Below are positions 34,084 to 64,000 of a stretch of 64,000 nt of DNA, piece after piece; the first letter of the stretch is position 1, and each line of letters begins with the position of its first letter. Both the position numbers and the translations under genes were made by a program. Under the pieces are notes generated by a model. It was given only the letters and a program-made list of their open reading frames with translations, ran no database searches and was not told where the DNA came from. Source of the DNA: Clostridia bacterium (lineage in GTDB: Bacteria > Bacillota > Clostridia > Christensenellales > UBA1242); the NCBI GenBank assembly GCA_017467625.1, contig JAFUSN010000003.1, positions 257,378-321,377 of the forward strand. Direction: 5' to 3'.

Positions 34084-34111
34084 ATTATAACACAAAGAAA
34101 ATAAAATTCAA
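34084..34111 (-). promoter_or_regulatory. Sigma-70-type promoter with extended -10, positioned for a leaderless esterase transcript
   Basis: Minus strand: TTGAAT (34111..34106), 16-nt spacer, TGtTATAAT (34092..34084), then ctttttATG. The ATG at 34077 is the 7th nt after the -10. No SD. Confidence 0.55.
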
Positions 34112-38773: not shown

Positions 38774-38783
38774 AATACAAAAT

Positions 38784-38809
38784 AAAAAGAGGGGTTTTCC
38801 CCTCTTTTT
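38784..38809 (-). terminator. Rho-independent terminator of giant gene 2
   Basis: AAAAAGAGGGG-tttt-CCCCTCTTTTT is an 11-bp stem. On the minus strand it is followed by TTTTTATTTTGT. The TAA stop (38810..38808) lies inside the stem. Confidence 0.85.
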
Positions 38810-41800
38810 ATTCGTAAATGTTCTCATAGTCATAAATTTTATCAGCTAAATTTATGATAGATGACACTACAGACAATGAAGTCTCTTCACGAGTAGCATC
38901 CACTTTCACATAGTTATTTGAAACTTGATCAAATACTTTTCCATCTTCATTTCTAAATACGGAAATTAAATAATGAGTTTCAACATCACCAACTTCAAGT
39001 GATTCACCTCTAATTCTAAATCCAGCTTCATTTATGTATGTAACTGGAATCATATTGATTGAAGAAACAATTTCTGTAATTGTTAATTCACCTTGACTAT
39101 CAGTAAGTTGGTTTACAAAGTTTGAAATACGAGCGTCATTTCTATTTCTGTAATAGTAAACTGCAAGTTCAATTGATTCCTCAATTGTCAAATTATCGTA
39201 TTGTGCAATAATTTGTGAACCATCTTGACTATCAAACAACTTAAATCCATTGTTATAGTAAGTTGCAGCAGCATTGAGCTCATCATCAGTAATTTCAAAA
39301 TAACGAACATCACTATAACTTTGCTCAGTCTTGTAATCATAATAGTTAAGATTCATATATTCATCAATAAATGAAACATTTCCATTGTAGCCACTAGTTT
39401 CAATAGCAATTGCAGGTGCGGTAAATCCAAAATTGTTTGAAAGTGTAATTATAGCTGTTGTTGAAAGTCCAGTTGAACCATTAACATTTACTGTAAGCAA
39501 GTTAGCTGAAATAATTGCAACATTACCATTATTATTGTAGTAAGCAACAATATAGTAAGTGTTATTATTTTCAAGACCATGCATTGTAAGAGCACTATTA
39601 GAAACTGAAGCCATAATTAAATCACCACTAAACTTTTGTAATGTAACTTTAAATGCATCTGTTCTGCTATATAATCCATATTCAACTAAATCAGCAAAGT
39701 AACTAAATTGTGAAGCATTAAATGCAACAAAGTTAAGTGTATGCGTGTTCATTGAATATTGAGTATTAGTAGCATAATCAAACTTAGATGTTGACATAAT
39801 TGAATTTACATTAGCAACTGTAATTGTTCCATTTGAAACAGTTACATTTGTTTCCATAAACATAAGATCTTGAATGTAAATCAACGATGCTGAATGGTTA
39901 GCATGGTTAATATAAATATAGTTTGATGTAATTTTAATAATTTCATCACCATTTGTATATAAACCAATTACATATCTATTTTCACTGAATGAATGTTCAA
40001 TGTTAGATGTTTCTCTTCCATTTGACCCCCCAACAATGTTAAGTGACTTCAATGCGTCTTCTTTTGTCATTGTTGTTAAATTAATAAAGTATTGAGTGAG
40101 TTCACTTGATGTAAGTGCAACAAATTTAAGATCATCAGCGCTATAAACATTACCTAATGAATCAGTGAATGATGTTTGCATCCTTGATTTATTTATAATT
40201 AAGCTCGTTTCACCAGTAGATGCATTCATACCAACATTTATTGAATTTGACGTAAATGCAACATTGTTTGAAATTGGGTATCTTGTAATTTGACCATTAT
40301 GGAATTCAATATACATATCTGAAATTGCAGCAATTGAATTTGTTGATCCTTTGCGATACATAAACAAGAATATGTATGCATCAGATCCAACTTCAATTTC
40401 ACTTCTTAAATCAACAAGTTTAACATTACTATAATTTGAAATTGTGTTCAAAAGTGCTGTTTGAACTGAAGGTCTTGAAGCAAGCGCTCTAATGTATGCT
40501 TCATACTCATTTTGATTTAAAACTAAAACTTTAATCTCATCTGGTGAGTAATAAGTGATCACTGAACCGTTTACATCAAAGAACTTCACTGTTGATTTAT
40601 ATTCATCAACATCTACTGTAATTGTTGTGTTATTTTTATTTGTAAAGTCTTTAACAACATTATTTTCATCAACATCCACTGTAAAGTTCAAAATAGCATA
40701 TGCTTGAATTGCATAAATATTTTGATCAACATGTGTATCTGTTGTGAGAATTTGAACTTGAATTGGATTTCCATCAATATTATCGCAAACAACAAACCCA
40801 GTTTCACCATCGATAAGTTGAACCGTTGCAGTATTTGAACTTGTATCAATACTAATGATATCAACATAAACTCCAGATGCTGCAAGTTGTGCAATATTAT
40901 CATATCCAAGTTTATTAATTATTGTTTGAGTTAAAACAACATAACAGATAAATTGTGAATTTGGGAACCAAGCTCCGATTGTTGATTGTGGAATTGAACT
41001 TAATGTTGCATATGAAAGAACTTTTCCAGCTCCTCCACATTCTTCGCAAATTGAACCAGCAACATTTCCATCTCCGCCACAATGTACGCAATCAACAAGA
41101 CTATCATCATGAAGTGTGAAATAGTTTCCATTATTAATATATGCACTTGTCCAAATCCATTGTGAAATTGATGCATCATATACATAACCCGTGTAGGTTG
41201 GCTTAGAGAGTTTCTGCGTGCCATCTTCGTCAATTAGTGTATACTCAGCAGACCTTAAAACATAATTTGAATTGTTTGTATATTGAACATAATTGCCATT
41301 CACATTTTTACTATCGCTCCATGTATAGAATATTACACGTTTTGAACTGTTTGAATCATTAATAATTGAACAACAAAGAGTTATATCTCTGTTTACAATC
41401 ATTGTTGTATCAATTTCAATTTCTTGTGCGTAATAACTGCCATCATCATTAAAGATAATTTCATACCAGAGTTCTGAACTAATATCCCAACCAGCAATTA
41501 TATCTGAAACAGGATAACCATATGGAACTTCGGTTGTATCATGAAGACCTGATGTTTCATCAATATTAATTGTTCCGTCATCTGAAACACTAATGTAAAC
41601 ATTTGTTTCAAATGATTGAGAACTAAACTCAAAGCTAATTATAAGTTCCGTCTTAACATTTTCAATTTCAACAACTGTGTAGAATGTATCTTCTTTGAAT
41701 TCTTCATAAGCAAGTTCCCTTGCAAATCCATCAAATTCATATTGAGCAGTTCCTTCACCATAAAGCAAACTGGTTATTTTAATGTTATTGAATACATATG

Positions 41801-44800
41801 GTATTGAAATTGTATCACCGCTACCAACAATTTGACTTGTTTCATGTGTTGCATTGTTTGTGATATTAATCACATATTCTGCCCATTCTAATCCCCTAAT
41901 TGCTGAATTGAATTTAAGATCAATTGTGGCAATATAGTTAACATTTTCAATATTATAATTCAATGTAATCTTTGAAATGTACTTACCACTTGATGTTGGA
42001 GCCACAACTATATATTCATTGTTATAGAACTGAATTTGTTGTGATAATGTTCCATCGGTTAATGAAAACTCTGTAGATCCATTTACATTAATCATATTGT
42101 AAGCAGCATTACCGCCATTTACATATGAAATTTCACCATCATTATCAACAATTTGTGTATCATTTCCAACCGTTACATTAAATCTGTTTATATCATATCC
42201 AGCAAAGAATGTAATCACATTGTTATCACTAGAATTATTATAAACTTTAACCATATAGGTATTAGAAGATGTTTTTGTAAAGTTGTTCCTAAATGAGTTA
42301 TATGTTGTTGATAATTCTCCATTATCATTAATTACAGTCTCATAAATAAGTCCAGCAAGGAAATTCTCATCAAGTCTATATGGATTATTATTACTATCAG
42401 TTCCATACGCACCAACTGTATCCCAAATAACCGTGTTATTAACATCTGCTAAATCATAGAATGTATTCAATGATTTATATGTGTAACCTGTTAATGAAAT
42501 TGAAAGTTCATCAAGCAACGCTTTGATCCTTTCAGGAACATCATTTTCAGTTTCTGCATTACTAATTACATCATTAAATTTAAGTTTATATGTAATTAAA
42601 TTGCTGCTATTGCCGTTTCTGTAAGCAAATATAGCATTATTTGCAAGATTATGTTTTGTTCCATCAAGTGTAACAAGATAATTTGCATCAACGTTTCCAA
42701 AGTTATTCATTGGAATTGTTCCAACTAAATTGTTTAAGCTGATGACAATCTTATATTCAATTGCTTCCCAAACTGTATACATACTTATGTAATATTCTGG
42801 AGAAATTCCACCTCTTCTTGCCATATCACCAAGTGCCTCAGTGGTTCTTGCAAGAGGATCATTTTCATATGTGGTATACAGATAAATCTTTCCATCTCCA
42901 GTTACGCTATTGATATCAAATCTTGAATTAATTGGACTAAGTGTGTTGACATATTCAGATGGATTCATAAATGCAAATCCACTATAGTTATAACCAACTC
43001 TGATATAACTTAAATCATCAATAACTTGGTCAAATGTAAATCTTGTTTGAACAGCCCTTGTTGTATATGTGTAACTTGTCATGTTTCCTTCACTCGTAGA
43101 AATTGGAGAGCTATTAACAGGAATCATTACAGATCCACCAGACGATGAGTCAATCACATCATTTTCAACAAGTGTGTATGTATTAGCAGTCCATCCAGCA
43201 TAAAGTATGATATCTTCAGTGTTTTCATTAATGATTCCTTTTTCAGTTAATTTTTCAAACATTTCCATCGAAATCATTGCTGTTTCACTTGAATATGCTC
43301 TAATAAACAAGTATTCATCACTTGCAATTGGATCAAGGTACCAACCTTTCCATGTATAACCAATTCTATCAACAAGAAGATTTGTTGTTAAACTACTGTT
43401 ATATGACAAACGTGAATATGGACTGTTTACAGTAATTTTTAATTTATCAGATGATACATCTTGATAGTTGCTATAATATGAAACGAAATTGTTATTTGAT
43501 AAGTAAGCTTTTGTTGAACCAACCCTTCCAAGACTTGTTGATGAAGAATCATTCAAATCAAACTTAATTCCAAATACCCTTGGAAGCCAAATTGCATGAA
43601 GTACAACTTCCAAATTGGTTTGACTATCACCAATTCTTTCAAATTCACCATTTGAGTAAATATGGTAATTACCATCTTTATCAACAATCAAGTTTTTACC
43701 AACATTACTATATTTTTCATGATCTTCAGTATCATTATACTTAACATTTCCAAACTTAAATGTTGCTTTGTCAAATGTTGAAGAAATAATTGCTAATGTT
43801 CCAAGTGCAAAGCCTGACTCATTTTCAACTTCTTGAATTACAACATCATCGAATGACCATCCAACAAACTCATATCCTGCTTTTGCAAGCATTTCAATCT
43901 CATAAGTTTGATCAAATACAAGTTCCTTAATTGAAATGTCATCCAATGTTACCTGTGCAGCTTCTCTATTTGTTACAACATTAATTTTATAAGTATTAGC
44001 CGTCCAATCAGCATATAGTGTAATTGTTCTTGTACTTGAATCAATCTTTAAATTGCCATAAAGTGATGCATCTAAACTTGTTGATGAAACAATTTTTACT
44101 TTATTGTCTGATGTTGAAGTATACCAACCATTCCATTTGTAACCTATTCTAGCAACATTTGCAAGTGAAATATTAATCCAATCATTAGTATCAAATACAA
44201 CACGAACAGCTGAAATAGGTGTATCAGGTCTTGAATATTGACCATTCTCAGCCTCAAACATTGCGGTTGTCGTTCCGTTTCTGTCTGAATCGTAGTCATT
44301 TTTAATAAAGTTTACGCTATATGTTATTGGAGTGTAGTAAGCATAAACATAAATATTATGCTCATATCCTCTGTCAGCATCTCCAAATCCTTCTTTTACA
44401 ACTGAACCATTATCAAAGTAAATATCTGGAGTTACACCAGTTTTTGCATTAATTAAATAGGTGTAATTAATAAGAACTGTATCAGACAAAATGTACTCTG
44501 AATTCTTAATAAAGCTTGAACTATTAACAACATTGTTTCCAACAATCCAACCAACAAAGTCATAACCAATTCTCTCAATATTTCCTGTAAATTTAATAGG
44601 TTGACCAAGTGTAATGCTTTCAGTATATCCAAAGTTTGAACTTGGTTCAGCTTTTGTTGAACCAAAGCCTCGATCTTTATCATAGAAGTTTACATTAACA
44701 TGATAAACATTTGCTGTCCAATGTGCTGTAACTGTAACTTCTCTAATACTTTCATATGTATTCAACATTGAAACTTCTGAATTTGCATTTTTAAATATAG

Positions 44801-47800
44801 ATCTCAAAAGTGTTAAATTGAATTCTGTTGAATTATTTTCAATCTTAATAGATTCATCTGTTTCATTTGTCCACAAGCCATCCCATATGAATCCATATCT
44901 ATCCATCACAACAGTATCCAAGTTATTCCAACTTGCTGTATCAAATTGTGTAGTAACAGTTAATGGTTTTGTTTCTAACGCAAAGTTACCATTTAAATCT
45001 TTATAAACAGCATGGCTTTCTGAATCAATAATTTCATTGTTATCAATAACAACATTGTACTGATTCTTTGTCCATCCAGCATAAATCGTAAGAGTTGTCG
45101 TTTTGTCATCAATATTTTCAAATTTATTATAAAGTCCATTATTTAATGTAGCCAAACTATTAACTTTGTTATAAACATATGTTGTACATGATTTGGTAGT
45201 ATACCAGCCAGTCCATGTATAGCCAAGTTTACCAAAAATAAGTGTGTCAATTTGAGCAGTTCTACCATTATATACCCATTCCCAATTGTTCGTATCAAAG
45301 TAAACAGATACCATAATTGAGTCATGAACATTAATATCAACGTATTCATCTCCATTATAGAAGTATGCATTTGTTGAACTTTCAGTTGAATTCAAATCTA
45401 ATGTTACTGAATATTTAATAGGTGCCCAAACAATTTGAACATAAACATTATGACTTGTTTCTGCATCACCAAGAACTTCTGGTGATGTCTTGCTATCGCC
45501 ATAAATAAACCCTGCTTCATTATCAAGTGATGCATTATTTTGTGTGTTTCGTGCTGTATCTTTTGTAAGTTCAAATTTAATTACTCCATCTTCTGAAACA
45601 AACTTGTAGGCAGAATCAATATTTTCATCAAGGAACATACCATAGAAATTATATCCTTTTCTTGAAGGAACTGGAATTTCAATTTCTTCTCCATCAAATG
45701 TTACTTTGAATATCGATGAATATGCTGCTGATGTTGTTGAACCAATGGATCTAGCAACATCTTTATATTTTTCATCATCTGGAATTTGAATTTGATATGA
45801 AACCTCAGGAGCTGCATTATACTTAAATGTTAATGTATAAGTGTTAGCCTTCCAAATTGCAAATAATTTAATTGTTCCATCTTCATCCCCTGAAACATCT
45901 TCTGTTATGTTTTCAGGAACAAATCTAGTATCATCTAAATTATATAATGTATTTGATGCTTTGTTATAAACAATATATTTAGATGCATAACCTGTTTCCA
46001 AATATGAGTAAGTTGACCAACCAACAAATGTATAACCATATCTGTCAATTACAATATTTCTTAGATATTCTGAAACAATTGTTGTTCCTTGTTGTTCATT
46101 TTCATATTCAAGGAACCAATCTTTGCTATCAAATCTTACATAAATAGATTTAGTACTGTTTGGCAACAACTCTCCATCTTCAACAAAGTAAGCATTTGTT
46201 GAACCATTCGCATTTCCAAGATCATTCTTAATAAATTCAACTTTATATTTCTTTGTTACCCAGTTTGCAATAAGAACAATCCTGTGCTCTTCCTCTAAGT
46301 CACCAAGTGCTTCTCTATCAGCATCAGAATCTGTTACATATCTCGTATAAAGAAGAACATCACCATTATTAAGATATATTACTGAATCATTAAGATAAGT
46401 GTAATATTTAGCATCTTTAACCTTGAATTGAGTTGCAGTTTCTTCATTTCCAGTAGTAATTATTGAAGAATTTAAGCTCCAACCAAGGAATGTATAACCA
46501 TTCCTACTTGCCGTTTGTTGATAATATGGAAGATTTCCATTTGATTGAAGAGATTCATATGTTGTATCGAATATGATTGTACTTGTAAATGCATATTCAC
46601 TATCATTTCTTGAAGCATGACTCGTTCCGGTTTGTAAATTCAAACCTTCAACATCATTCAAATCATAAATAACTGTATAAGTGTTTGCGTTCCAACCAGC
46701 AAATGTATAGAACATTCTAAAGTCTTCACTATCATTATTATCAATGTTTCCATTAAGTGTAATTGCAACATTATACAAATCAATGTCAAATACATGAATT
46801 TGAGGATTTGTTACACTTAAGTCATTGATTGTATGTCCACCAACAATTGCAGTTTGTGCACCCTGATCAATAAACCAACCTGTCCAAGTATATCCAAACC
46901 TATCAGTTAAAATATGATATATTGAAATATTTTCAACAACATCGCCATTGTCCTTTGAATAAATTCTATAACCATTAGTATCAAATAGAACCCTAATTTC
47001 ATAAAGATCATCAAATTCTTCTTTGTCAATATCATAAACATTTGAATCAAAATGTTTAATACTTGCAGGTGTTGAGCCTAATTTCCAATCATTGTTTTCT
47101 GTGTTTGAATCACGAAGAATCAGATTCATTGTATACTCATTTTGCATCCAACCTGCATAAAGGTTGATTGTTCCTGTTACACCAAGTTTATCTTCTTCTG
47201 TAATATAACCATCAACTTGTGTATAATTATCAATATCAGTGTTGAGTGTTAAAACATTGAGTTTTGATTCACTAGTATCATTAATTGCATCATAGATAAT
47301 TGAAGGAATATATGCACCATCTTGAGTTCCATTATTCATTGTTCGGGTTGTATACCAACCAAGGAATGTATAACCAATTCTTGATGTTGAAATATATCTA
47401 AGTGCATTATCTTGAGAGTCTACGAATGAATACCAGTTATCCGTATCAAATTTAACTCTAACTTTATCAACTGTTTCTGAAACTGGTTGAGTGTTGTTGA
47501 GTTTTGTTGCATAGGTTGAATTTATAATTCTTTCAGCATAATTTTCAGCAATATATCTATAATCATTGTTGAAATTAAAGCTTACTTCATAAATTCTAGC
47601 GGTCCAGTTTGCATAGAGAACAATCATATGCTCTGAATTAGTTTCTTCATCACCAAGTTTTTCACTTTCATAATCATTTAATGAACTAAAGAACTTCAAA
47701 TATGACTCAGTTGAAATGCAACTTGTTGCCACATTTGTTTGTCTAGCAAATTCATAATTGAGTTTTAAGTTTCGAGTAATAAGAGTATCAGTATAATTTG

Positions 47801-56800: not shown

Positions 56801-59800
56801 AATCAAATTCGTTGCCAGTTGCCCAACCCATGAATGTGTAACCAACCATTGAATATTTATTAGAATTAATTTCTGTTACTTGGTTAAAGTAGAAGTTTTG
56901 AGTAAGTTCACTTGTTTCAAGATTTGAAGCAGAAATTGTATTTCCGTTAATAACAATTGGGCTGGTTGCATTCTGTTTGTTGAACTTATATGTAACAGTC
57001 ATAAGTTTTGGAGATGAATAGAATTTAATATTGTTAGTTGCAAATGTATTTGTATCGGCCAAAACTTCAAATCTAAATGTTCCATATGTTGTTGTACTAT
57101 TTTCTCTTGAATATGTAATTGCAATTGAATTTGGAAGTGTCTTATCAGTTGAAACAGTGTAAGTATTTCCACTCTTTGAATATGTAAGATAATAATCTGT
57201 TCCAAGATAGTTTACTTTAGTTAAATCATAACCTTCAATTTCTGTGTAATAAATGTAATATCTATTACCAAAGAACGAATCTGCAATTCTTCCCAATCTT
57301 TCTTTATATGTAATTGAAGAAAGAATTGCATCTCTATTCGCTTTTGTGTAATCAATTTTGATATTTGAAAGTGTTTGACCATTAAACCATGATTGATTTG
57401 CAAGTGGGTCAAGCCTTGCATGACTATCATTAGTATCAATTACACCACCGTTAACAACATAGAAATACGAATCAATGTTAACTTTTGTGCTTACTTCATC
57501 AACTCTAACTTTTGCAAAAGTATAACCATTAAATGTTGTATGTTCATTTGCAGATGTTGAATAAAGTTTTCTTAAGTCTTCAATATAAATTTCTTTATAT
57601 TTAGAACTTGCACTAACTGCGCCATCAACAGTTGTATCTGCACTGTTAACTTTATAAATTGAATTTGCATTATATTGATAACTGCTATTATCAATGTGAC
57701 CTTCATGTGGAACAGTTGCTTTATTCGTAAGCGTAAATCCAGTCATTCGATATGAATATGCATTATCAATAGTTCTAAATGTAATTCCATTATTATCAAA
57801 AATCTTTGCTTTTCCAATAAAGATAAGTTCTACATAATATGTTGAATCAAACTTGCCAGTTCTAAACTCAGTCACTTGAGCTTTAGACTCTGCATATGAA
57901 AGATATGAACCAGTATTGTTCTTTAAATATTCAACTGGCTTGTATCCAATATAGAAATTAAGTGCAAAGTTATTTATGTTATTATCAGTGTTATTTCCTG
58001 TATATGACAATAAAATATTTTTCCAGTTGCCTGCCTCAAATCTGAATGAAATGTAGCTTTCAGCAACCGCTGTGATTCTTACATTTCCATAAATACCAAA
58101 TACTCTAACAGTAATATATCCTGTTGTCTCATCATATTTATATGAGATGAAATCTTTGTTATGGAATGTATAAATCCAATCACTTCCACTATAACCATTA
58201 TTACTATAAGTAAATATGTATGAGTAATTACTATTTGCAAGTTTGGATGAAATATCATCACGAGTTATAGTGAATGTTCCCTTTCCGTAGTTAACGGTAA
58301 GGGTCTTTATTATGTAGCCACTATGTGGTCTAATTACATAAGTGTTAACATCTGATGGACTAACACCAGTTTGATTCATTGAATCATTGTAATCAATTGT
58401 TGCACCAACTGTAGCTGTTGACTTATAAAGATCATTTGCTCCATTTGCCACACTTGAAGAGAATTGAATTGCGTTTTTAATGTCGGTAAAGTCAGCAACA
58501 ACTTTAAGCCCATCATTTTCCCTTCTTGTGTCATCAAATAAAATGTATGCGTAATAATCTTCAGTATTTACTGTATAGTGGCATAAATATAGAACTGCGT
58601 AATTTGTTGTTTCAACAGTTGATTTTGAACTTGATGTTGAAGTTGTTTGCAATTCATATGCTGAAATATAAGGAAGTGTGTATGCTTTTTCAACAACATA
58701 AGTTATTCCATCAACATTAATTGTAAATGAACCATAAACAGGTGTCTTACTTGCAACAATGGTTCCTGAACTATTTTTAACAACGAAATTAGTGAAATCA
58801 ATCTCGTAATTTGTTGCAGTATCAGTTCTGTATTCAAGGGTGTAATAAGTTGTGCGTGAACCTTTCGTGAATGTCAACTTGCTTAAATATGAATCAACAT
58901 AATTCAAATATGAATGAGCCGTATCATTTGTTTTATTGTTTCTAAAGTAAGTGTAATCAACATTATTAACATTTGGATAGAACACTACATATTGTGTGTT
59001 ACCATACATTGTTCCAGATGTTTTTGGTTGTGTCGCAACTTGATGGTCCAATGTTCCAGATGTTGTTGTTCCCTTTTCAACATAACCTTGTGAAGTTGCA
59101 TGACCTGTTGTTGAATAATCTAATGAATCATAAGTAATTGTTGAAACATTTAATGTCATTGCAAAATCTTTATACACATTAGCAACTTTAATCATGTATC
59201 TATATTCACGAGTTGTATCGTTGAAATACCACTCATAACTATAAACATTTTGAACTGAACCGTTGTTTGTAATAGTTATATCACTTCTATCAAGTTTATA
59301 GCCTTCTCTAAGGTAAATAAATAATGTTAAGTCATTGTTTTGAAGTGTTTTAACTGTAAATGTTTCATTATTATTATAACCAAATCCAACATAAAGAGGA
59401 TTGGTTGATGATGCAATTCTTGTCCAATATTTTCCAAAGTTTGCATCGTTTACATAAGGTCTTAAACCTTGTGAATCTAAGTAATATGTTGCTGCAGAAT
59501 TATAAGCGTCACCATCTTTAACTTTAACAATTTCAGATGCAGATTTTCTTACATAGAGAACATTATCCCTTGTTGCAACTCCATAAACCCAATAACTATC
59601 AAAGCTTGTTCCAGTATATTTGGTTAGACCTTCAGCATCAACATAATAAGTTAATGATGAATCATATCTATCACCCGTTGCAACCTTAGAAATTGCAGCA
59701 AGATGCATAACTCTTCTGCCTGTTTCTCCATCATTTCCTTTAAATTTATTTGCGACATCAGTATTATTTTGAGTTGCATTATTTGAATAAACAAACAAAC

Positions 59801-62800
59801 TTGGAGTGTAGAAATTGGTTAATGTTGAACCAATATACTCATTAAATCTTGAATTTACTTCATAATAGATTCCTTTATAATTGATTCTATCAGCATAAAT
59901 AATTGAATTTGTGTTAATAGTATCAGCGTAATCAAGATTATTTTGTAAATTATTAACTCTAATATTTTCAATTCCACTAACCGGACTATTAGTTTGTTCA
60001 ATTCCATCAGTTGTGTAATAAACTGAGCCATAATCACCATTAATGGTTATATTTGCTGTATATTCAACCATCTCATAAACAGCATAAACATAAATATCGT
60101 GGTAAGCATGAGTAAATCTAAATTTAGTCATTCCATTTTCATCATAATAATAGAACTGAGATGAAGCTTGTTTTTCACTTCCATCAAAATCTGTATATGA
60201 ATATATAAATTCATGATAGTTCTGTGTTCCATTATATTTGTCAAAATATCTACCATCTTTATAGTACTGATCATTTACGATATATGCGTGATCTTGGTCA
60301 ACATAAACATACCAACCAATAAATTTATACCATGATGGAACTAAAACATTCTTTTCATTGTTATCATCAATTCTTGATTCAAATGGATTCCATTCCCAAA
60401 CAATATCGCTTGCATATCTAGTTTTGATGAGATCAGTCTTATTTTCAGTTGTTGAATAGAACACATAGTTTGATCCAGGAAGAGTTGTTCTTCCATCAGG
60501 TGCAACAAAGAAATGTCCTTGGTCAACGTTTGAACTATTATAAATTGTTGTTGGGTTTGTTTCGCTCTCATAGAATGTTGCATAGTAAATTTCCTTTACA
60601 TCATAAGCAAAGAAGTATTCATCACCAGCATATCTCTTATAGAATGTTGAGTTTGCATAAACAAACTTATCAGATGAGAACATATCATTATTGATATAAT
60701 CTTCATCAACATCGTCTTCACTTGTGTAATATTCCTCAATATTAATATATGGAACATCAGATTTCAAAGGATTATTATATGAACTTGCATTATCAATTCT
60801 AAGAGCAGCATTTGAATATGTTGGATCATACCAGTAACTGTAATTTGATGCACTAAGGTTTTTATCATTATAATTTCCACTAGCATAATTTGCATAATTT
60901 GCAGTTGAATACCAATCGCTAACATTTTCATTTCTATCAGGATTTGCATCTGTTGCTTCGCTCAAATTATCATAGTTGTAATACCATCTAAACCATGTAT
61001 AGAAATCATAGTGAAGTGGAATTCGGCTTTCGTCAACAATTTCACCGGCTATTACAAATTGTCTATCATAAGTAAGTTCAATATAGTTAACTGACTTACC
61101 TGGCAAAATGTATTCTGCATAGTTAGTAAATCCATTATTGTTAATTGAGTTAACAACATTTTCATTATCATTGCTACCAACTGCATAGTAGAAGTAAGCT
61201 TTATATGTTTTTGCTGTCCATTTTGCATAAAGGTTAACAATATGATCACTATCAGTATGACTTACATATCCAATAGCACCAGCTGTTGCGCTTGTCATAA
61301 AATGCGCTGTAGTTTGATAATCTGCATTACCATTATCAATAAGTTTTTGACAATCTGCAGGGATTGCATTTGCGGCCAAAAGTTGTGTGTAAAGCGTAAA
61401 GTTAAATGTTGGTTGCGCTGCAATATTTCTTGTATCTACCCTATCAACACCTGAAATAATTCGAAGTAAATTGTTTGCGGTTGAAATGAACCAACCATTC
61501 CATGTATAACCATACCTTTGAACAAGTGTAAGATCAAGATTAATCCAATCATTTGTATCATAAACAACAGTCACTGTATAAACTTGTGATGAACTGTAAT
61601 ATGCGGTTCCGTTAAAGAACCTTGCAGGTGTTTTTTCTGTTGTTGTATTAAAATTAAATGTAATTGAATAAGTTTCCGCTCTCCATCTTGCATACAAAGT
61701 TACATTTCCACTTAAAATTTGTTGCTTTAATATTGAATAATAAGTAGATGCACTTGCAGAATTTCTCTTACTCATATCAAATGAAGCAAGGTTATTAAAG
61801 CGAACTACACTATCAGCTGTATTTTCCCATCCTGTTACATGTGACCAACCAATGAATGTATAGCCAATAATATAGAATGGATAGAAGTCTAATCTGTTAG
61901 TATAAGTGAATAATCTATATGTTTCACTTGATGTGTTAACATTTGAATAAATAACAATGTCTCCTGTTGGTGCATCTGGATCAACTTGTTTATAAATTGT
62001 TCCATTTGTAGCAGTTCCATTATATGCATTTGTTAAATCACTATAGTCATAAATTTGGTTGTAAACAACCTTTTGGGTTAAATTACCATTCTGTGAAACA
62101 TTTGTATATGTTGTTCTGTTTGAAACAGAAACTGAATATGGATTTACAACAGGGTTTGAAATTGTATTAATTGTAAGAGGACTGGTTGAATTACCCTTAT
62201 TTGAGTTGTATGTAACTGTAAAGATATTAGGAGTTGAATAGAATTCAACAACTAAACCAGCTGTAAGGTATGCTAAAATGTCCCCATTAAATTCAAACGA
62301 ATAGCTTCCATCATTAGTTGTATATGATGCAGTGATTGTGTTGAGTTCATCATTATTGTTTGCAAATGTATAAATTCCAGAATTTGCAGATATTGTTTTT
62401 CCTGAACGTGTATAGTAATCAACAAATTGAACTGATCCATTGCTAATTGTTGCAATAATATCAATATAATGTCCATCGTTCGCATATTTTCCTGTAGTAA
62501 TTAACCTATTATTGATATATCCATAAATTCTAAGTGTTGAAAGCGTGTAACCATCAATCTTATTATAGTTAAACACGAGTTTATTACCATAATATGTGAT
62601 AATTTCCCTTCCATTATAAACATAGTTACTATCAACAGTTGCTTTTGTTAATCCACTATATGCTGAATAGTCAACATTAATATCAGAAAGAACTTGATTA
62701 TTAAACCATGTATTAGTTGAATATGGATCAAGTCTTGAACCCATCAAATTGCCATTTACATCAATTACATTTAAGTATGAATTGAATTCACTTGTGTTTG

Positions 62801-64000
62801 TTAAAACATCAACTCTAAATTTAACAAAACTTCTTCCATTATTTTCCAGTGCAAAAATTTGTTGCATAGGCTTAATTGTTGTAATTGCAAAGTTTGTTGA
62901 TGATGCAGAAACATTTGTAATATCTGTTTCTGAAGATTTATTAAATATGAATGAGTTATCAAGTTTATAAGCATAACCTGGACCAAGTAAATTAATCACA
63001 AACTCACGGCCAAAGATATCTGCGTGTCCATATGAAACAAATTCAACATAATACATTGTTACATTGTTGTCATCTTTATCAACGCCAGCATAAGAGCCAA
63101 GATTAAAGAATGAATTGTTATAAACATCATCATTAATCTTGAACTTCAAGTTTGATTTAGCCATACCCAAAGCTTCATCATGAAGCAAATATCCCATACT
63201 TTCAGTTTCAAGTCTAAATACAACATGTGACTTAAACTTAACATCAACAGTTATATTGTGATAAATTCCAGTAATACTAATTTCAAAAGTTCCAAGTTTA
63301 TTATTTAATTTATAACTAATATATCTGTTTCCATTTCTTGTTATCGTTCCACTAATAATTTGGCTAGCAGAATCATTCTTCGTTAAGTAATAATTTGCTT
63401 GAGACTGTGAATCTTCATATGAATATGTATAAGTATATGCCCCGCCCTTAGCATAGTTTGTAACAATAAGGGTATGATCAATTCTATATGTCTTGCCTTC
63501 GTAAGTCATAAGAATATAGTCTACAACATATCCCTTGTCTGGTGTTATTGTTAAAGTGTTTGTTGCAGTTGGAAGAATGCTATTAATTGTTGGTGTAATT
63601 GAGCCATAAGCATTTCCACTGACATATTGATCTGAACTTGTTGTAATACCTTTACTTGTAATAATACTATTTCTAATATCAGTAAAGTTTGCAACAATTT
63701 CAATAGCTTCATTTGACTGACATGAATCACTAAACAAAATGTAAACATATTTAGTTTCTGTGTGTAATCCGCCATATGAACATAAATACAGAATGAAGTT
63801 TTGATGAGTTGTCCCACTGTTATAATTCATTGTAAATGCATTATTAACATCGTAAACAACACCAGCAATATTAAATGTTGAATATGCTTTACTTGAAACA
63901 TATGCTGTTGCATTTGTTGAAGTAATCTTGCTCATATCATATCTATCAGTTGTAGCATTATAACCAAGATTAAAGTTATAAGTTTTTGAACCAATTTTAA
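38808..64000 (-). CDS. Giant secreted/surface repeat protein (at least 8,396 codons in window, 5' end probably outside) built from Listeria-Bacteroides (Flg_new/InlB-B-type) repeat units
   Basis: The ORF track starts at Met 63935, but the same frame is open to 64000 (..KIGSKTYNFNLGYNATTDRYD-MSKITS..). No SD precedes that ATG (gatagatatgatATG). I counted about 33 occurrences of the core [DSQ]-[RK]-x-G-Y-[TI]-[FW]-x-G-[WF], each framed by 'ANTY.V.F' starts and 'LYA.W' ends. That is the order of motifs in the Listeria-Bacteroides repeat, here expanded to about 120-250 aa per unit. There is no TM segment or LPXTG at the C-terminus. All other frames are broken to 94 aa or less. Confidence 0.9.
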   Translation of the reverse strand, partial: KIGSKTYNFNLGYNATTDRYDMSKITSTNATAYVSSKAYSTFNIAGVVYDVNNAFTMNYNSGTTHQNFILYLCSYGGLHTETKYVYILFSDSCQSNEAIEIVANFTDIRNSIITSKGITTSSDQYVSGNAYGSITPTINSILPTATNTLTITPDKGYVVDYILMTYEGKTYRIDHTLIVTNYAKGGAYTYTYSYEDSQSQANYYLTKNDSASQIISGTITRNGNRYISYKLNNKLGTFEISITGIYHNITVDVKFKSHVVFRLETESMGYLLHDEALGMAKSNLKFKINDDVYNNSFFNLGSYAGVDKDDNNVTMYYVEFVSYGHADIFGREFVINLLGPGYAYKLDNSFIFNKSSETDITNVSASSTNFAITTIKPMQQIFALENNGRSFVKFRVDVLTNTSEFNSYLNVIDVNGNLMGSRLDPYSTNTWFNNQVLSDINVDYSAYSGLTKATVDSNYVYNGREIITYYGNKLVFNYNKIDGYTLSTLRIYGYINNRLITTGKYANDGHYIDIIATISNGSVQFVDYYTRSGKTISANSGIYTFANNNDELNTITASYTTNDGSYSFEFNGDILAYLTAGLVVEFYSTPNIFTVTYNSNKGNSTSPLTINTISNPVVNPYSVSVSNRTTYTNVSQNGNLTQKVVYNQIYDYSDLTNAYNGTATNGTIYKQVDPDAPTGDIVIYSNVNTSSETYRLFTYTNRLDFYPFYIIGYTFIGWSHVTGWENTADSVVRFNNLASFDMSKRNSASASTYYSILKQQILSGNVTLYARWRAETYSITFNFNTTTEKTPARFFNGTAYYSSSQVYTVTVVYDTNDWINLDLTLVQRYGYTWNGWFISTANNLLRIISGVDRVDTRNIAAQPTFNFTLYTQLLAANAIPADCQKLIDNGNADYQTTAHFMTSATAGAIGYVSHTDSDHIVNLYAKWTAKTYKAYFYYAVGSNDNENVVNSINNNGFTNYAEYILPGKSVNYIELTYDRQFVIAGEIVDESRIPLHYDFYTWFRWYYNYDNLSEATDANPDRNENVSDWYSTANYANYASGNYNDKNLSASNYSYWYDPTYSNAALRIDNASSYNNPLKSDVPYINIEEYYTSEDDVDEDYINNDMFSSDKFVYANSTFYKRYAGDEYFFAYDVKEIYYATFYESETNPTTIYNSSNVDQGHFFVAPDGRTTLPGSNYVFYSTTENKTDLIKTRYASDIVWEWNPFESRIDDNNEKNVLVPSWYKFIGWYVYVDQDHAYIVNDQYYKDGRYFDKYNGTQNYHEFIYSYTDFDGSEKQASSQFYYYDENGMTKFRFTHAYHDIYVYAVYEMVEYTANITINGDYGSVYYTTDGIEQTNSPVSGIENIRVNNLQNNLDYADTINTNSIIYADRINYKGIYYEVNSRFNEYIGSTLTNFYTPSLFVYSNNATQNNTDVANKFKGNDGETGRRVMHLAAISKVATGDRYDSSLTYYVDAEGLTKYTGTSFDSYWVYGVATRDNVLYVRKSASEIVKVKDGDAYNSAATYYLDSQGLRPYVNDANFGKYWTRIASSTNPLYVGFGYNNNETFTVKTLQNNDLTLFIYLREGYKLDRSDITITNNGSVQNVYSYEWYFNDTTREYRYMIKVANVYKDFAMTLNVSTITYDSLDYSTTGHATSQGYVEKGTTTSGTLDHQVATQPKTSGTMYGNTQYVVFYPNVNNVDYTYFRNNKTNDTAHSYLNYVDSYLSKLTFTKGSRTTYYTLEYRTDTATNYEIDFTNFVVKNSSGTIVASKTPVYGSFTINVDGITYVVEKAYTLPYISAYELQTTSTSSSKSTVETTNYAVLYLCHYTVNTEDYYAYILFDDTRRENDGLKVVADFTDIKNAIQFSSSVANGANDLYKSTATVGATIDYNDSMNQTGVSPSDVNTYVIRPHSGYIIKTLTVNYGKGTFTITRDDISSKLANSNYSYIFTYSNNGYSGSDWIYTFHNKDFISYKYDETTGYITVRVFGIYGNVRITAVAESYISFRFEAGNWKNILLSYTGNNTDNNINNFALNFYIGYKPVEYLKNNTGSYLSYAESKAQVTEFRTGKFDSTYYVELIFIGKAKIFDNNGITFRTIDNAYSYRMTGFTLTNKATVPHEGHIDNSSYQYNANSIYKVNSADTTVDGAVSASSKYKEIYIEDLRKLYSTSANEHTTFNGYTFAKVRVDEVSTKVNIDSYFYVVNGGVIDTNDSHARLDPLANQSWFNGQTLSNIKIDYTKANRDAILSSITYKERLGRIADSFFGNRYYIYYTEIEGYDLTKVNYLGTDYYLTYSKSGNTYTVSTDKTLPNSIAITYSRENSTTTYGTFRFEVLADTNTFATNNIKFYSSPKLMTVTYKFNKQNATSPIVINGNTISASNLETSELTQNFYFNQVTEINSNKYSMVGYTFMGWATGNEFDSSASVNGLSAWSNAYSWSIERNSANETDIYNESTTLYGRGFFSYWFGVSGNKAYFVSYDSNSSGVYRYNFYNSIKDQIHNSIYNGVNIKLYAVWKANKYNIVLNTNKNVGSTTPEYYSYETSAYNDESYFIAESTTYLVVTYDTNLWQLSYNGTIYKLSDVLLDRYGYTWQGFYVSTAATGTAQNQFFNKNAAGFNWDALDTLLQIVDGHTYATKNSIILPKLDYELICKTNYTEPSYNLSFTYASGSGAASATNSLDSRNEVYKGGTGETSNNKFGSITVYAGWQANTYKISYDYGTNGIDSNVIKSSSISHDSERISIKNLLGSSPLQTNSHNYTEFVFDVEYDAEYLTRIGYTFVGWRTGLNSTATIAAGNKMILNLTTIRNSNVAGTGVFADSYLYRNKSYINNATEFLGDVETLGDTESGNNIDNHFVIFFAMWQVNTYTVHLNINSSIMNSTVASYSGIQSGNIYQNGLIPFTLRVVFDTNDWYYPTSTDKKLANILLEKFGYMWIGWYTNMLTVEGQDYLAAGVQTDYDYVNSYNEYVDKVAGRGVQNTETIDYTLFNQFTFRTMGRATTLETELQAFESSLVTNYSPRYGYTILSSDGEGNWVENRSTSTFELTIYSKWQGIIYETTFEKTDFDLSLKSNRNSGIGSTEAYYLNGVGLDAYTSTETTTMYVMFDTNLYTSNFKEILKNVSDHGKYSTENGTHLEDLVRVDRFGYTWTGWYTRGYETANVTTRQSTETGTAFKVGSMSGSLLVVDGINVSGKTRISNFSNTYRSTVYGFNDTAAYRYVNTSNRKFDLTMYNTLQTYTTNKTHTGNNNIGTFEMKLYAGWEANTYQITYEGNDVHSTNPLKNYTVKTANLDNSGNGGSSPTYKVTGFALSVLFDGADVEATAFQRVGYTFTGYSLGQTSEPYFKSSKASEWKSTKVRLDYFAIKFEGGPETSAKTTNNYLYSSYSYATHTGVNEVLGDGLQTYAVALNAFYKANVYHVNFNSNISAGGSTTPWFSVDGSSYTNATYNSTIMVEFDTDEWKSNDGKEIDDIRVDRYGYTWMGWYVKSTFFNTILNNTDRYVVSTGNENNALWELYYKYIIVSNNGLDNVQVFNYARFKKFFDIVNVSGETLVSISEETTTNGRSFTGTYTSINPSEANNFNSFTFNGDHSFTIGKKSLTVSGNTYTGRVVEKYNSATNLADEHEIYLFAGWQANTYKVSYDYGTNGIDSTNASTKYKGVQDGVAHSVWTSEVSIAHDASGISLKNLNGTSSPLATNSGDYYEFVFDVEYSPQYLTRVGYTFAGWRFGLNSASTMAHGAKMVINATTIAQAGISTSGSTTNGLLYVDESMLNDSSAILGTYERLGDSDSRYTFVENGSAVTYTMAKNNQKHNVILFAIWQANTYTVSIDVNASEIDSTNAVYNGTTYNNGLLNIKLKVVFDTNNWVVDGDSANLLDLVLTKENYFWIGWYTNADTWEEFNDNGTIKSDFLTSGTDYGYENDYNYYYDRIASRTTPVMRVLDYTLFNQYTFRTFDQGTTNAGLTTFESDLATTYDREFGYTILRNDGEGNWVENRKTSTFELTIYAKWQGIIYQVSFDATDFNTSSIYGIGSTNAFYINELNGSYNAENAYCNMYVMFDRNEYTSDYEEIYSLRYKEIYYDFESATYVIDRNGDGIEDRTVAGDHLKDIIKVDRYGYTWTGWYTRGYENRTSRTATNGTTTFYNGTMKSNSKLILTANDANSKTHSSGYSRNIQDSDNAKFDKSIYDTLLTVTTNKSAKNYTLTLYAGWAANTYQVVYESNDVNSTNELKKKTVKTAGDLDSTTGGTSPAYQSKTKITTILFDSTDVDAGAFQRVGYTFTGFSIGQTTEPYFKTLQGSEAKKTMVRLDYFAIKFEDGPVTSAEYTDNYLNSAYTTNNNTREILGDAIKTYEVTLNAFYRANIYDVSFNSNKAAGGSTDPWFYDISSGTYTDATSDYDDILKIEFDSTKWMVDNQNVDLSQVLIDRFGYTWMGWFTRSTAFNISANNSNSFNAADTNFWKRYYNFMVISGTASTDYREYLIPFNYSLFLTLFEYTSNVKEATNYNHTVNVDATDITWNLVDNSFTVNGDIIETYSTHKFKLSAGWQANTYNLTYYYSDVNSIKNSVNNGSYVTTSPIESITANGVTVAGDLTNRYVTMTLVFDKEYEYPEYLSRIGYTFAGWRFGLNSNYTFAYGDKLVLNADSIAIKNVAGTASTSESYLYEDTLYAEVAMSDTNYNRLGTIEKLGDTESNYTLSTNGLVNNIAKHTAQIFAIWDVNEYIVEFNINYSYNNSTYTNFTAGIYNKPSSTFATYLSRTSDKIETTTSLIGTLNDINAYMTGDGDKSSLQYGFRLSEQFIEFEGDDFDYVAHVTFDHNDWWFETKSGEKISDALYYILLQKFGYYFGGWYTSSSCEHVVLAYNEYEGTYNNILGMYSTDPLVKLDYSYYSKFTHSVSQRNSNNGYITTGDWVENRDTRTFEITLYAKWTAKTYTVDKFYAYSTNRSGNIVGSTTPYYTVNGIDWIEVVTNVNDPIENLDSLIEIRVYFDTNNWYSVDGNGNKLEDNGLYNLLIDRYGYTWTGWYGRRANESSMQYRVIDGHRSDLMTYGSSYTTECIAVNLSYSMFNRMDERDETSRKFSLYAHYNANQYLLKFDYTDVNSSHGVGSSVATTLSNATYVSQKVTFDTPTQDIIQLHRNGYTFVGWRFGTDDVTKNNSILYAGTTFVISDDYIHSDDGTEVFIFTNNDCTVQEAFGDFEGRNDGNIFVHYTVAYAVWAPITYHVTFNGNKQNGTTTTPLFKENGVYDKLQSSFTLDVVFDTNEWNIANGSGTIYDILIDRYGYTWTGWFITDDMAGNNRIIAGNSTAGRENNVHVFDDTFFSTVYAPVKYESDTTNVSFTVYAGWIANTYSIVYDYSDVGSERLYFGTLQRNLGGTQNPIGSTAANSDIPSYSNISEIVFDTIADTEFISAYRYGYIFNGWTLNPENASLQSNYTDTLITRNLKLNYEFARQTNVATSCISTESYLKFFSSLNDYESEKLGDEETNSEHMIVLYANWTARIYEVSFNFNNDYRYIAENYAERIINSTYATKLNNTQPVSETVDKVRVKFDTDNWYSFVDSQDNALRYISTSRIGYTFLGWYTTRTMNNGTQDGAYIPSIIYDAINDTSESKLNVLTLNTDIDNYTQVDGYITEEDKLGVTGTINLYAGWMQNEYTMNLILRDSNTENNDWKLGSTPASIKHFDSNVYDIDKEEFDDLYEIRVLFDTNGYRIYSKDNGDVVENISIYHILTDRFGYTWTGWFIDQGAQTAIVGGHTINDLSVTNPQIHVFDIDLYNVAITLNGNIDNNDSEDFRMFYTFAGWNANTYTVIYDLNDVEGLNLQTGTSHASRNDSEYAFTSTIIFDTTYESLQSNGNLPYYQQTASRNGYTFLGWSLNSSIITTGNEETATQFKVKDAKYYTYLNDSVIYLNNGDVLLYTRYVTDSDADREALGDLEEEHRIVLIANWVTKKYKVEFIKNDLGNANGSTNAYFVEDGELLPNSTKSIYVRFDSKDWFLEYENEQQGTTIVSEYLRNIVIDRYGYTFVGWSTYSYLETGYASKYIVYNKASNTLYNLDDTRFVPENITEDVSGDEDGTIKLFAIWKANTYTLTFKYNAAPEVSYQIQIPDDEKYKDVARSIGSTTSAAYSSIFKVTFDGEEIEIPVPSRKGYNFYGMFLDENIDSAYKFVSEDGVIKFELTKDTARNTQNNASLDNEAGFIYGDSKTSPEVLGDAETSHNVYVQIVWAPIKYSVTLDLNSTESSTNAYFYNGDEYVDINVHDSIMVSVYFDTNNWEWVYNGRTAQIDTLIFGKLGYTWTGWYTTKSCTTYVYNKVNSLATLNNGLYNKFENIDDKTTTLTIYAGWTKNQYNVVIDNNEIIDSESHAVYKDLNGNFALETKPLTVTTQFDTASWNNLDTVVMDRYGFIWDGLWTNETDESIKIENNSTEFNLTLLRSIFKNANSEVSMLNTYESIREVTVTAHWTANVYHVNVNFYDKDRGFGSTKAEPSSNFGYTESITLGQPIKFTGNIERIGYDFVGWIVGNNVVNSSSFIKNSEYILSDTVLINYTYLINAKTGVTPDIYFDNGSVVKEGFGDADRGYEHNIYVYAYYTPITYSVNFIKNDYDSDRNGTTTAMFEAENGQYSRPDTPISAVRVVFDTNDWINISLANVARIGYKWNGWYTSTSDNKVKIVSSTSLDASLYGNLKIDSSTRTITLYADWTANTYKINVVTNREAAQVTLDDISIKELVFDQTYEIEMLAKAGYEFVGWSFDDVVIQEVENESGFALGTLAIISSTFDKATFKFGNVKYNDTEDHEKYSNVGKNLIVDKDGNYHIYSNGEFERIGDSQTNLEVVLHAIWLPRVFGIKFDLNDSSSTSLGRVGSTKAYLSNNNFVSYYSNYQDVSSDKLKITVNSPYSRLSYNSSLTTNLLVDRIGYTWKGWYLDPIASDEYLFIRAYSSETAMISMEMFEKLTEKGIINENTEDIILYAGWTANTYTLVENDVIDSSSGGSVMIPVNSSPISTSEGNMTSYTYTTRAVQTRFTFDQVIDDLSYIRVGYNYSGFAFMNPSEYVNTLSPINSRFDINSVTGDGKIYLYTTYENDPLARTTEALGDMARRGGISPEYYISMYTVWEAIEYKIVISLNNLVGTIPMNNFGNVDANYLVTLDGTKHNLANNAIFAYRNGNSSNLITYKLKFNDVISNAETENDVPERIKALLDELSISLTGYTYKSLNTFYDLADVNNTVIWDTVGAYGTDSNNNPYRLDENFLAGLIYETVINDNGELSTTYNSFRNNFTKTSSNTYMVKVYNNSSDNNVITFFAGYDINRFNVTVGNDTQIVDNDGEISYVNGGNAAYNMINVNGSTEFSLTDGTLSQQIQFYNNEYIVVAPTSSGKYISKITLNYNIENVNYIATIDLKFNSAIRGLEWAEYVINITNNATHETSQIVGSGDTISIPYVFNNIKITSLLYGEGTAQYEFDGFARELAYEEFKEDTFYTVVEIENVKTELIISFEFSSQSFETNVYISVSDDGTINIDETSGLHDTTEVPYGYPVSDIIAGWDISSELWYEIIFNDDGSYYAQEIEIDTTMIVNRDITLCCSIINDSNSSKRVIFYTWSDSKNVNGNYVQYTNNSNYVLRSAEYTLIDEDGTQKLSKPTYTGYVYDASISQWIWTSAYINNGNYFTLHDDSLVDCVHCGGDGNVAGSICEECGGAGKVLSYATLSSIPQSTIGAWFPNSQFICYVVLTQTIINKLGYDNIAQLAASGVYVDIISIDTSSNTATVQLIDGETGFVVCDNIDGNPIQVQILTTDTHVDQNIYAIQAYAILNFTVDVDENNVVKDFTNKNNTTITVDVDEYKSTVKFFDVNGSVITYYSPDEIKVLVLNQNEYEAYIRALASRPSVQTALLNTISNYSNVKLVDLRSEIEVGSDAYIFLFMYRKGSTNSIAAISDMYIEFHNGQITRYPISNNVAFTSNSINVGMNASTGETSLIINKSRMQTSFTDSLGNVYSADDLKFVALTSSELTQYFINLTTMTKEDALKSLNIVGGSNGRETSNIEHSFSENRYVIGLYTNGDEIIKITSNYIYINHANHSASLIYIQDLMFMETNVTVSNGTITVANVNSIMSTSKFDYATNTQYSMNTHTLNFVAFNASQFSYFADLVEYGLYSRTDAFKVTLQKFSGDLIMASVSNSALTMHGLENNNTYYIVAYYNNNGNVAIISANLLTVNVNGSTGLSTTAIITLSNNFGFTAPAIAIETSGYNGNVSFIDEYMNLNYYDYKTEQSYSDVRYFEITDDELNAAATYYNNGFKLFDSQDGSQIIAQYDNLTIEESIELAVYYYRNRNDARISNFVNQLTDSQGELTITEIVSSINMIPVTYINEAGFRIRGESLEVGDVETHYLISVFRNEDGKVFDQVSNNYVKVDATREETSLSVVSSIINLADKIYDYENIYE
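38811..40620 (-). repeat. Four tandem C-terminal modules (about 130-190 aa each) of giant gene 2
   Basis: Modules start near 40600, 40180, 39795 and 39385. They share FFDVNGSVITYYSPDEIKVLVLNQNEYEAYIRAL / FTDSLGNVYSADDLKFVALTSSELTQYFINL / FDYATNTQYSMNTHTLNFVAFNASQFSYFADL / FIDEYMNLNYYDY..DVRYFEITDDELNAAATYY. Each has a later Y-[IV]-[FIV]-x-x-Y strand (AYIFLFMYRKG, RYVIGLYTNG, TYYIVAYYNNNG, THYLISVFRNEDG). Confidence 0.6.
41025..41090 (-). other. Paired CXXCXGXG motifs (DnaJ-type zinc-knuckle signature) inside giant gene 2
   Basis: Translation CVHCGGDGNVAGSICEECGGAG (aa 7616..7637). Both halves fit C-x-x-C-x-G-x-G exactly. It is the only four-Cys cluster I see in the protein. Confidence 0.6.
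42204..44012 (-). repeat. Partial, degenerate higher-order repeat block 6 (4 units, 603 aa)
   Basis: Begins at ADWTANTYKINVV (Ala codon 44012..44010, aa 6642). Cores: AKAGYEFVGWSFD, DRIGYTWKGWYLD, IRVGYNYSGFAFM, SLTGYTYKSLNTF. Ends at FFAGY (42203). Confidence 0.7.
44013..45860 (-). repeat. Higher-order repeat block 5 (5 units, 616 aa)
   Basis: Begins at AIWKANTYTLTFKY (Ala codon 45860..45858, aa 6026). Cores: SRKGYNFYGMFLD, GKLGYTWTGWYTT, DRYGFIWDGLWTN, ERIGYDFVGWIVG, ARIGYKWNGWYTS. Confidence 0.8.
45861..48068 (-). repeat. Higher-order repeat block 4 (5 units, 736 aa)
   Basis: Begins at AGWIANTYSIVYDY (Ala codon 48068..48066, aa 5290). Cores: YRYGYIFNGWTLN, SRIGYTFLGWYTT, DRFGYTWTGWFID, SRNGYTFLGWSLN, DRYGYTFVGWSTY. 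Confidence 0.8.
48069..50459 (-). repeat. Higher-order repeat block 3 (5 units, 797 aa)
   Basis: Begins at AGWQANTYNLTYYY (Ala codon 50459..50457, aa 4493). Cores: SRIGYTFAGWRFG, QKFGYYFGGWYTS, DRYGYTWTGWYGR, HRNGYTFVGWRFG, DRYGYTWTGWFIT. Confidence 0.8.
50460..53192 (-). repeat. Higher-order repeat block 2 (5 units, 911 aa)
   Basis: Begins at AGWQANTYKVSYDYGTNGID (Ala codon 53192..53190, aa 3582). Cores: TRVGYTFAGWRFG, KENYFWIGWYTN, DRYGYTWTGWYTR, QRVGYTFTGFSIG, DRFGYTWMGWFTR. Long collinear identity with block 1, e.g. DGEGNWVENR.TSTFELTIY.KWQGIIY. Confidence 0.85.
53193..55955 (-). repeat. Higher-order repeat block 1 (5 units, 921 aa)
   Basis: Begins at AGWQANTYKISYDYGTNGID (Ala codon 55955..55953, aa 2661). 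Unit cores: TRIGYTFVGWRTG, EKFGYMWIGWYTN, DRFGYTWTGWYTR, QRVGYTFTGYSLG, DRYGYTWMGWYVK. Confidence 0.85.
56281..58720 (-). repeat. N-terminal module copy B of giant gene 2 (coding repeat)
   Basis: See copy A. The offset between landmarks is about 5.2-5.3 kb. Confidence 0.75.
61485..64000 (-). repeat. N-terminal module copy A of giant gene 2 (coding repeat, truncated by window edge)
   Basis: Collinear with 56281..58720. Landmarks: FILYLCSY vs AVLYLCHY; YILFSDS vs YILFDDT; IVANFTDIRNSI vs VVADFTDIKNAI; TITPDKGYVVDYILMTY vs VIRPHSGYIIKTLTVNY; RLDPYSTNTWFNNQVLSDINVDY vs RLDPLANQSWFNGQTLSNIKIDY; FYSTPNIFTVTYNSNKGNSTSP vs FYSSPKLMTVTYKFNKQNATSP; IGYTFIGW vs VGYTFMGW; RYGYTWNGW vs RYGYTWQGF. Confidence 0.75.

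Follow-up and report, generated by a model that had tools for sequence, protein, structure and literature searches.

In the Firmicute Staphylococcus aureus, the ~10,000-aa protein Ebh forms a repetitive extracellular fibre, which consists of helical repeats and carries a C-terminal membrane anchor. MSCRAMMs and SRRPs carry a C-terminal LPXTG motif. In mammalian gut metagenomes, Clostridia encode proteins of 10,000-30,000 aa with Listeria-Bacteroides repeats, for which binding to the surfaces of hosts or prey has been suggested (West-Roberts et al., 2023, bioRxiv 10.1101/2023.11.21.568195). Giant proteins of the Omnitrophota contain many transmembrane (TM) regions and divergent SecA DEAD helicase-like domains (bioRxiv 10.1101/2023.11.21.568195). 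In Apilactobacillus kunkeei, the proteins Giant1-5 are extracellular and were recovered from culture supernatant; they span 3-8 k aa and combine an N-terminal beta-solenoid with a basic SH3b-like/DUF5776 C-terminus (PMC12863079).

Few bacterial proteins exceed 10,000 aa, and short-read assembly systematically truncates those that do. Here, we focus on g2, a giant gene of an uncultured low-GC (~30%) 'Clostridia bacterium' of the ruminant gut, which was analysed in a window of 64,000 nucleotides (the whole stretch of DNA under study). The window holds the 3' part of g2, a second giant gene (g1) and several smaller genes between them (Table 1). g2 is a genuine, conserved protein-coding gene.

Table 1. 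Features of g2 and neighbouring elements in the window. Residues of g2 are counted from the codon at 63998 as the first.
Feature	Coordinates	Strand	Residues	Description or basis
g2, 3' 25.2 kb of a giant gene	38808..64000	(-)		8,396 codons + TAA stop (38808-38810); 5' end outside the window
ATG formerly read as g2 start	63933..63935	(-)	22	internal Met; upstream frame open, no SD
D1	61839..63878	(-)	41-720	~680-aa domain, predicted all-beta; ends in a Flg_new-like GYTFIGW unit; paralog of D2
Two Flg_new-like modules	61059..61823	(-)	726-980	local HMM iteration; GYTWNGW motifs
Unique region	58725..61058	(-)	981-1758	no similarity within g2 or outside (BLASTP, Pfam, NCBIfam, PDB)
D2	56799..58724	(-)	1759-2400	second D1-type copy; BLASTP + three-way alignment A5
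Array of ~30 expanded, divergent Flg_new modules	42477..56753	(-)	2416-7174	iterated HMM: 30 domains
Old segmental duplication within the array	50364..55961	(-)	~2680-3600 and ~3601-4545	two ~0.95-k-aa blocks, 40-60% identical
Conserved C-terminal region	38811..42476	(-)	7175-8396 (~1,200 aa)	string of predicted FN3/Ig-like beta-sandwiches, helical inserts, acidic
DnaJ-type zinc knuckle (Cys4)	41028..41090	(-)	7637-7657	CVHCGGDG-x9-CEECGGAG; loop insertion
Intrinsic terminator	38780..38813	(-)		15-bp stem then T-run, overlaps g2 stop codon; terminator scan
g1	1131-30398	(+)		complete 9,755-aa ORF, 1.1 MDa, pI 4.7; strong SD AAGAGGG; lipoprotein signal
orf664	30495-32489	(+)		N-terminal signal/TM, large ectodomain, C-terminal TM (aa ~602-634), basic cytoplasmic tail

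Extent, conservation and neighbourhood of g2

The g2 frame on the minus strand is open from 63998 down to its TAA and comprises 8,396 sense codons with no internal stop. Given the base composition of the region, ~8.4% of codons are expected to be stops at random, and the chance of an open run of 8,396 codons is ~1e-319. The remaining five frames across the same stretch hold 336-1,347 stops each, and GC at codon positions 1/2/3 of g2 is 38%/38%/18%. In the ORF listing, the in-window part starts at ATG-63935 and measures 8,375 aa. The 21 codons 5' of this ATG are open as well (KIGSKTYNFNLGYNATTDRYD, then M), and the GGAGG-like Shine-Dalgarno (SD) motif sought upstream of it is absent. The initial annotation had described a gene of at least 8,396 codons with a frame still open at the window edge and a Met at 63935 that lacks an SD and is preceded by 21 open codons, all of which is seen in the sequence (no stop from 63998 until the TAA at 38808-38810). 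Its estimate that the two giants fill about 54.5 kb of the 64 kb likewise holds, with g1 and the in-window part of g2 adding up to 54.5 kb.

Longer versions of the gene were located in public assemblies through the proteins encoded next to it in the window. In ENA XIEF21-1_SAMN15829988_METAG-scaffold_9 (432,826 bp), g2 is called as 9,190 aa from record position ~3, and in Logan contigs of two runs (SRR12529323, SRR12529328) it measures 9,145 aa and is cut at position 2. Because the call in scaffold_9 starts at record position ~3, g2 is cut by the contig end there, too. Position 64000 of the window corresponds to position 2,383 of scaffold_9, and hence at least 794 more in-frame codons belong to g2. 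The full length is therefore at least 9,190 codons and most probably lies at 10,000-14,000. That g2 exceeds 25.2 kb and does not start at Met-63935, as had been proposed, is shown directly by the 9,190-aa and 9,145-aa calls.

Public assemblies were compared with the window over the stretches that they cover, at seven loci in five assemblies that stem from different pipelines and several samples (ENA, Logan). Four of the five are identical to the window, and one differs by two mismatches and one 4-nt indel, the indel lying outside g2. DNA repeats within the in-window part of g2 share 60-92% identity and reach at most ~220 nt, and long exact repeats are absent from this part. Since the assemblies agree with the window and the repeats are short and imperfect, the g2 ORF is no assembly chimera or repeat collapse. 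Every public assembly of the species breaks inside g2. In three assemblies from two pipelines, the breaks fall within ~135 nt of each other (scaffold_9 ~1-135, ~2.4 kb past window position 64000), suggesting a repeat, a graph branch or a strain branch point at this site.

Broader sequence searches returned little. An exact 60-mer from the window end had no match in the contigs of GTDB-representative genomes, and a protein-pattern scan of these contigs yielded no relative. Two scans of JGI metagenome contigs with g2 alignments (A1, A5) did not return a relative either. The protein-library searches with g2 sequences retrieved family members of up to 4,297 aa.

Five related species carry a g2 ortholog at the same position beside an oxidoreductase gene and cysS. 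Complete orthologs encode 13,426 aa (L009; ENA ERZ28653793 XIEF21-1_SAMN15830008_METAG-scaffold_2), 14,194 aa (L010; ENA ERZ27317338 k141_628566, where the gene begins ~125 nt from the contig end) and 10,336 aa (L011). An independent assembly of the L011 species (L016) again gives 10,336 aa; the two contigs with this ortholog are JGI 3300006217 Ga0081461_1000001 and ENA ERZ12802837 NODE_1. The orthologs in L018 and L020 are cut by contig ends. On the L018 contig (JGI Ga0224414_10004319, 67,680 bp), giant genes lie at both contig ends and both are cut (9,388 and 9,441 aa), which illustrates how giant genes fragment short-read assemblies. Look-ups of the fragments P0129 and P0122 gave only contig-edge or frameshift-split copies, the frameshift split occurring in one low-coverage relative.

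The gene order is conserved in all five relatives and reads giant gene - Oxidored_FMN/Pyr_redox_2 oxidoreductase - cysS - 242-aa protein. Where the contig reaches far enough, which is the case in four relatives, this is followed by a NUDIX gene, a gene for a ~660-aa protein and a second giant gene on the opposite strand. Among the six species sampled, the convergent giant pair around cysS occupies ~55-75 kb per species. A clade of uncultured gut Clostridia thus keeps two giant genes in a fixed position.

The cysS product beside g2 has many relatives at 67-75% identity, and the named ones are labelled 'MAG: ... [Clostridia bacterium]'. The g2 orthologs are far more diverged than cysS: over the last ~2,500 aa, g2 and its orthologs align colinearly with 28-36% identity (675-1,208 bits). 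Within a single related species, the last 7,524 nt of L011 and L016 differ at 26 sites, with 22 synonymous and 4 nonsynonymous codon changes. This ratio indicates purifying selection in the short term, next to fast evolution between species. Such a combination of constraint within one species and quick divergence between species is expected for surface molecules that face the host, feed particles or other cells.

The N-terminus of g1 (MVKSNLIGKNIIKTIARSFVLLFVCFASLFLAAC, followed by GK) is a lipoprotein signal with the lipobox LFLAAC/G. The protein is essentially devoid of Pfam domains, and orthologs of 9,895 and 10,508 aa occupy the same position in relatives. Homology between g1 and g2 was considered and rejected, as the only alignments are compositional (~19%). 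orf664 has no match in a Pfam search, and in relatives its counterparts (661-693 aa) likewise follow g1 directly. This type-I membrane protein is a possible candidate for a membrane partner of the giant proteins. In a second sample of the same strain (L005; ENA ERZ28656003 scaffold_282, window ~24340-45072), a 4-nt indel splits orf664 into 190 and 484 aa, and the g1 call there measures only 4,611 aa. On the g1/orf664 side, these differences might reflect phase variation or a natural disruption. For the esterase gene (Abhydrolase_3; 33115-34095, minus strand), the called start varies by assembly, with products of 320 or 356 aa compared to a 326-aa TTG ORF in the window, and the longer call overlaps the NUDIX gene (32501-33091, minus strand). 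Four terminator-like sites were found in the region versus 0.4 expected. The terminator that overlaps the g2 stop codon indicates that g2 ends its own transcription unit.

Modular architecture of g2

The in-window part of g2 encodes 950 kDa of protein with a pI of 4.6, rich in T, N, S and Y and with 0.2% Cys. Its most N-terminal recognisable unit, D1, recurs as D2 (BLASTP aa 41-779 vs 1759-2500: 25.7% identity, E 1.5e-40). The sole database relative of D1 is P0001 (38% identity), a 779-aa fragment from another Clostridia MAG. D1 is predicted to be all-beta, and an AF2 model built from three sequences was unusable (pLDDT 38). D1 and D2 are the two g2 copies of a new, lineage-specific domain of ~700 aa, predicted to be all-beta.

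The only families recovered in a Pfam and NCBIfam scan of g2 are Flg_new (PF09479, 58.9 bits, cut-off 27) and TIGR02543 (82.8 bits, cut-off 20.95); these are whole-protein scores, both matches lie in the C-terminal half of g2, and no enzyme domain was detected. A PDB sequence search with both halves of g2 returned nothing. The modules of the array measure ~55-230 aa, mostly 100-230 aa, and most of them terminate in GY[TW]x[FW]xGW ... LYAxW-ANTYxV. Of the 25 copies of the motif GY.[FW].GW in g2, 23 fall inside the array. A scan of ten single modules (126-191 aa) gave top scores of 12.6-19.4 bits, with matches to profile positions ~24-55 of 65. No single module matched the profile end to end, all stayed below the Pfam threshold, and four of the ten gave no Flg_new-type match at all. 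Scores of 12-19 bits that are confined to the profile core identify the modules as expanded, divergent Listeria-Bacteroides units. Part of the array arose by an old segmental duplication, which is visible in tile BLAST offsets of 921-954 aa and in DNA repeat families spaced 2,817-2,862 nt apart with 70-79% identity.

The array is followed by the conserved C-terminal region, which has just 21 relatives among 1.84e9 representative proteins, all of them fragments of at most 4,297 aa. A further homologous-protein search with the C-terminal alignment gave no return. In relatives that are not cut, the match stops no more than a few residues short of the protein end, and the region is colinear with the syntenic orthologs at 30-34% identity. 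An AF2 model of the region, built with the sequences of the relatives, reaches a mean pLDDT of 75, with 85-93 over the last 600 aa. Foldseek searches with this model (PDB, BFVD) retrieved only tandem FN3/Ig-like arrays, among them ROS1, contactin, fibronectin, gp130 and proteins of phages (FN3 or tip-attachment); a catalytic or anchoring fold is not among these matches. The net charge of the region ranges from -1 to -20 per 150 aa. The zinc knuckle was not seen in the homologous fragments P0122-P0136, whose sequences were compared by eye.

Proposed role of g2

g2 is best explained as a secreted, fibrillar, multivalent adhesin-like surface protein that is probably held by its N-terminus, a reading to which we assign a probability of roughly 0.7. 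Secretion, N-terminal anchoring and the adhesive function are features that we infer. The product would be an acidic extracellular fibre of more than 1 MDa with almost no cysteine, composed of beta-rich modules arranged like beads on a string. Export would rely on an N-terminal signal outside the window, and the N-terminal end might retain the protein at the cell, by analogy with the neighbouring lipoprotein g1. From there, the fibre could project for hundreds of nanometres and act as a multivalent adhesin for the surfaces of the host, of feed particles or of partner cells. The conserved, predicted FN3/Ig-like C-terminal region would then be located at the distal tip. As the best-conserved part of g2, this region could equally be the cell-proximal end and bind a partner such as orf664.

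Placing the attachment at the N-terminus is compatible with the anchor searches. The 8,396 aa include no TM-like segment (maximum 19-residue Kyte-Doolittle value 1.19) and no LPXTG (LP.T[GAS]), NPXTG or lipobox motif. The last residues before the stop codon (...LADKIYDYENIYE) are acidic, and no anchor or LPXTG was recognised by eye at the C-terminal tails of the orthologs. The initial annotation had stated that the C-terminus is devoid of a TM helix, LPXTG or another anchor, with which the motif and hydropathy scans agree. It had further concluded that the protein must be attached by its N-terminus, released or bound non-covalently; of these options, anchoring by the N-terminus is plausible. 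Moreover, Pfam and NCBIfam give no match to SH3b, DUF5776, SLH, LysM, CWB or GW domains in g2.

The lack of a covalent or membrane anchor in 8,396 aa is also consistent with a released matrix or biofilm protein that is either unanchored or held non-covalently via the conserved C-terminal region. A. kunkeei Giant1-5, which share the plan of signal peptide, imperfect repeats and conserved C-terminal segment, are found in the culture supernatant, and no part of g2 is better conserved among orthologs than the C-terminal region. We regard release into a matrix as possible but unlikely, because the charge at the C-terminus is strongly negative (net -8 to -20 per 150 aa), wall-binding domains of the types listed above are missing and the predicted fold is FN3/Ig-like. 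These properties imply that an A. kunkeei-style basic wall-binding end is absent from g2; a basic wall-binding C-terminus is ruled out by the charge profile. The lipoprotein nature of the neighbouring giant g1 also argues against release.

It is highly improbable that g2 resembles CDI, Rhs or MAFB systems, as a polymorphic toxin or a fibre that delivers effectors and ends in a variable C-terminal toxin. The gene product is indeed very long, repetitive, extracellular-looking and fast-evolving, and a small Cys4 zinc knuckle lies near its C-terminus. However, the species share a conserved, colinear C-terminus, which is modelled as FN3/Ig-like sandwiches. Furthermore, no toxin, Rhs, PT-TG or immunity gene was found, and g2 is directly followed by a terminator and then by housekeeping genes. 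In view of its domain content and gene context, we reject toxin, phage-tail and Omnitrophota-type identities for g2.

That g2 is an artefact or a decaying gene, through repeat misassembly or as a pseudogene no longer made as one protein, is essentially refuted. All assemblies of the species do break inside it at nearly one site, 9,145 or 9,190 aa before its stop codon, and one low-coverage relative shows a frameshift split. However, five assemblies from different pipelines and samples match the window where they cover it, four of them exactly, and long exact repeats are absent from the window, as are stops from 25 kb of 30%-GC DNA. In addition, three other species have complete orthologs, confirmed for one species by two independent assemblies, and the synonymous:nonsynonymous ratio is 22:4.

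With g2 taken as an adhesin-like surface fibre, a wider proposal would be that g1, g2 and orf664 form a lineage-defining attachment apparatus of this uncultured gut Clostridia clade, in which D1/D2 recognise a specific partner. We consider this doubtful. If the partner of D1/D2 were another microbe, the bacteria would be epibionts, comparable to other lineages that bear giant proteins.

Comparison with known giant proteins

The Clostridia giants of West-Roberts et al. (2023) share with g2 the taxon label, the animal gut habitat, the size class, the Flg_new repeats and the predicted surface-binding role. The reported giants start at 10,000 aa; g2, still cut, comprises at least 9,190 aa, and its complete orthologs reach 10,336-14,194 aa. 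By the summary description given in that paper, g2 is set apart by D1/D2, by modules of up to ~230 aa, by its C-terminal region and by the convergent giant pair around cysS. In Listeria, Bacteroides and gut methanogens, surface proteins of the InlB B-repeat/Flg_new type share with g2 the core motif GYTFxGW and a terminal strand with LYAxW. Canonical Flg_new units measure ~65-70 aa, whereas most units of g2 span 100-230 aa and contain long insertions.

The A. kunkeei giants resemble the g2 locus in that a small Firmicute genome devotes a few percent of its length to several very large, fast-evolving genes. The proteins are alike in their long, highly imperfect repeats, in a conserved C-terminal segment and in that no TM segment or LPXTG motif was found. 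They do not share sequence similarity with g2, which instead consists of Flg_new-like modules and an acidic, predicted FN3/Ig-like C-terminus. In contrast to Ebh and the LPXTG adhesins, g2 has neither a C-terminal membrane anchor nor an LPXTG motif. The Omnitrophota giants are similar in their extreme length, but the 8,396 aa of g2 include no TM or SecA-DEAD domain.

Gut Clostridia giants with Listeria-Bacteroides repeats have already been reported. g2 belongs to the described giant repetitive extracellular proteins of gut Firmicutes and does not represent a new class of mechanism. Within this group, the locus provides a defined family, recognisable by the D1/D2 domain, the expanded form of Flg_new and the rare C-terminal region. 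These three features, together with the conserved convergent giant pair, are what is lineage-specific in g2.
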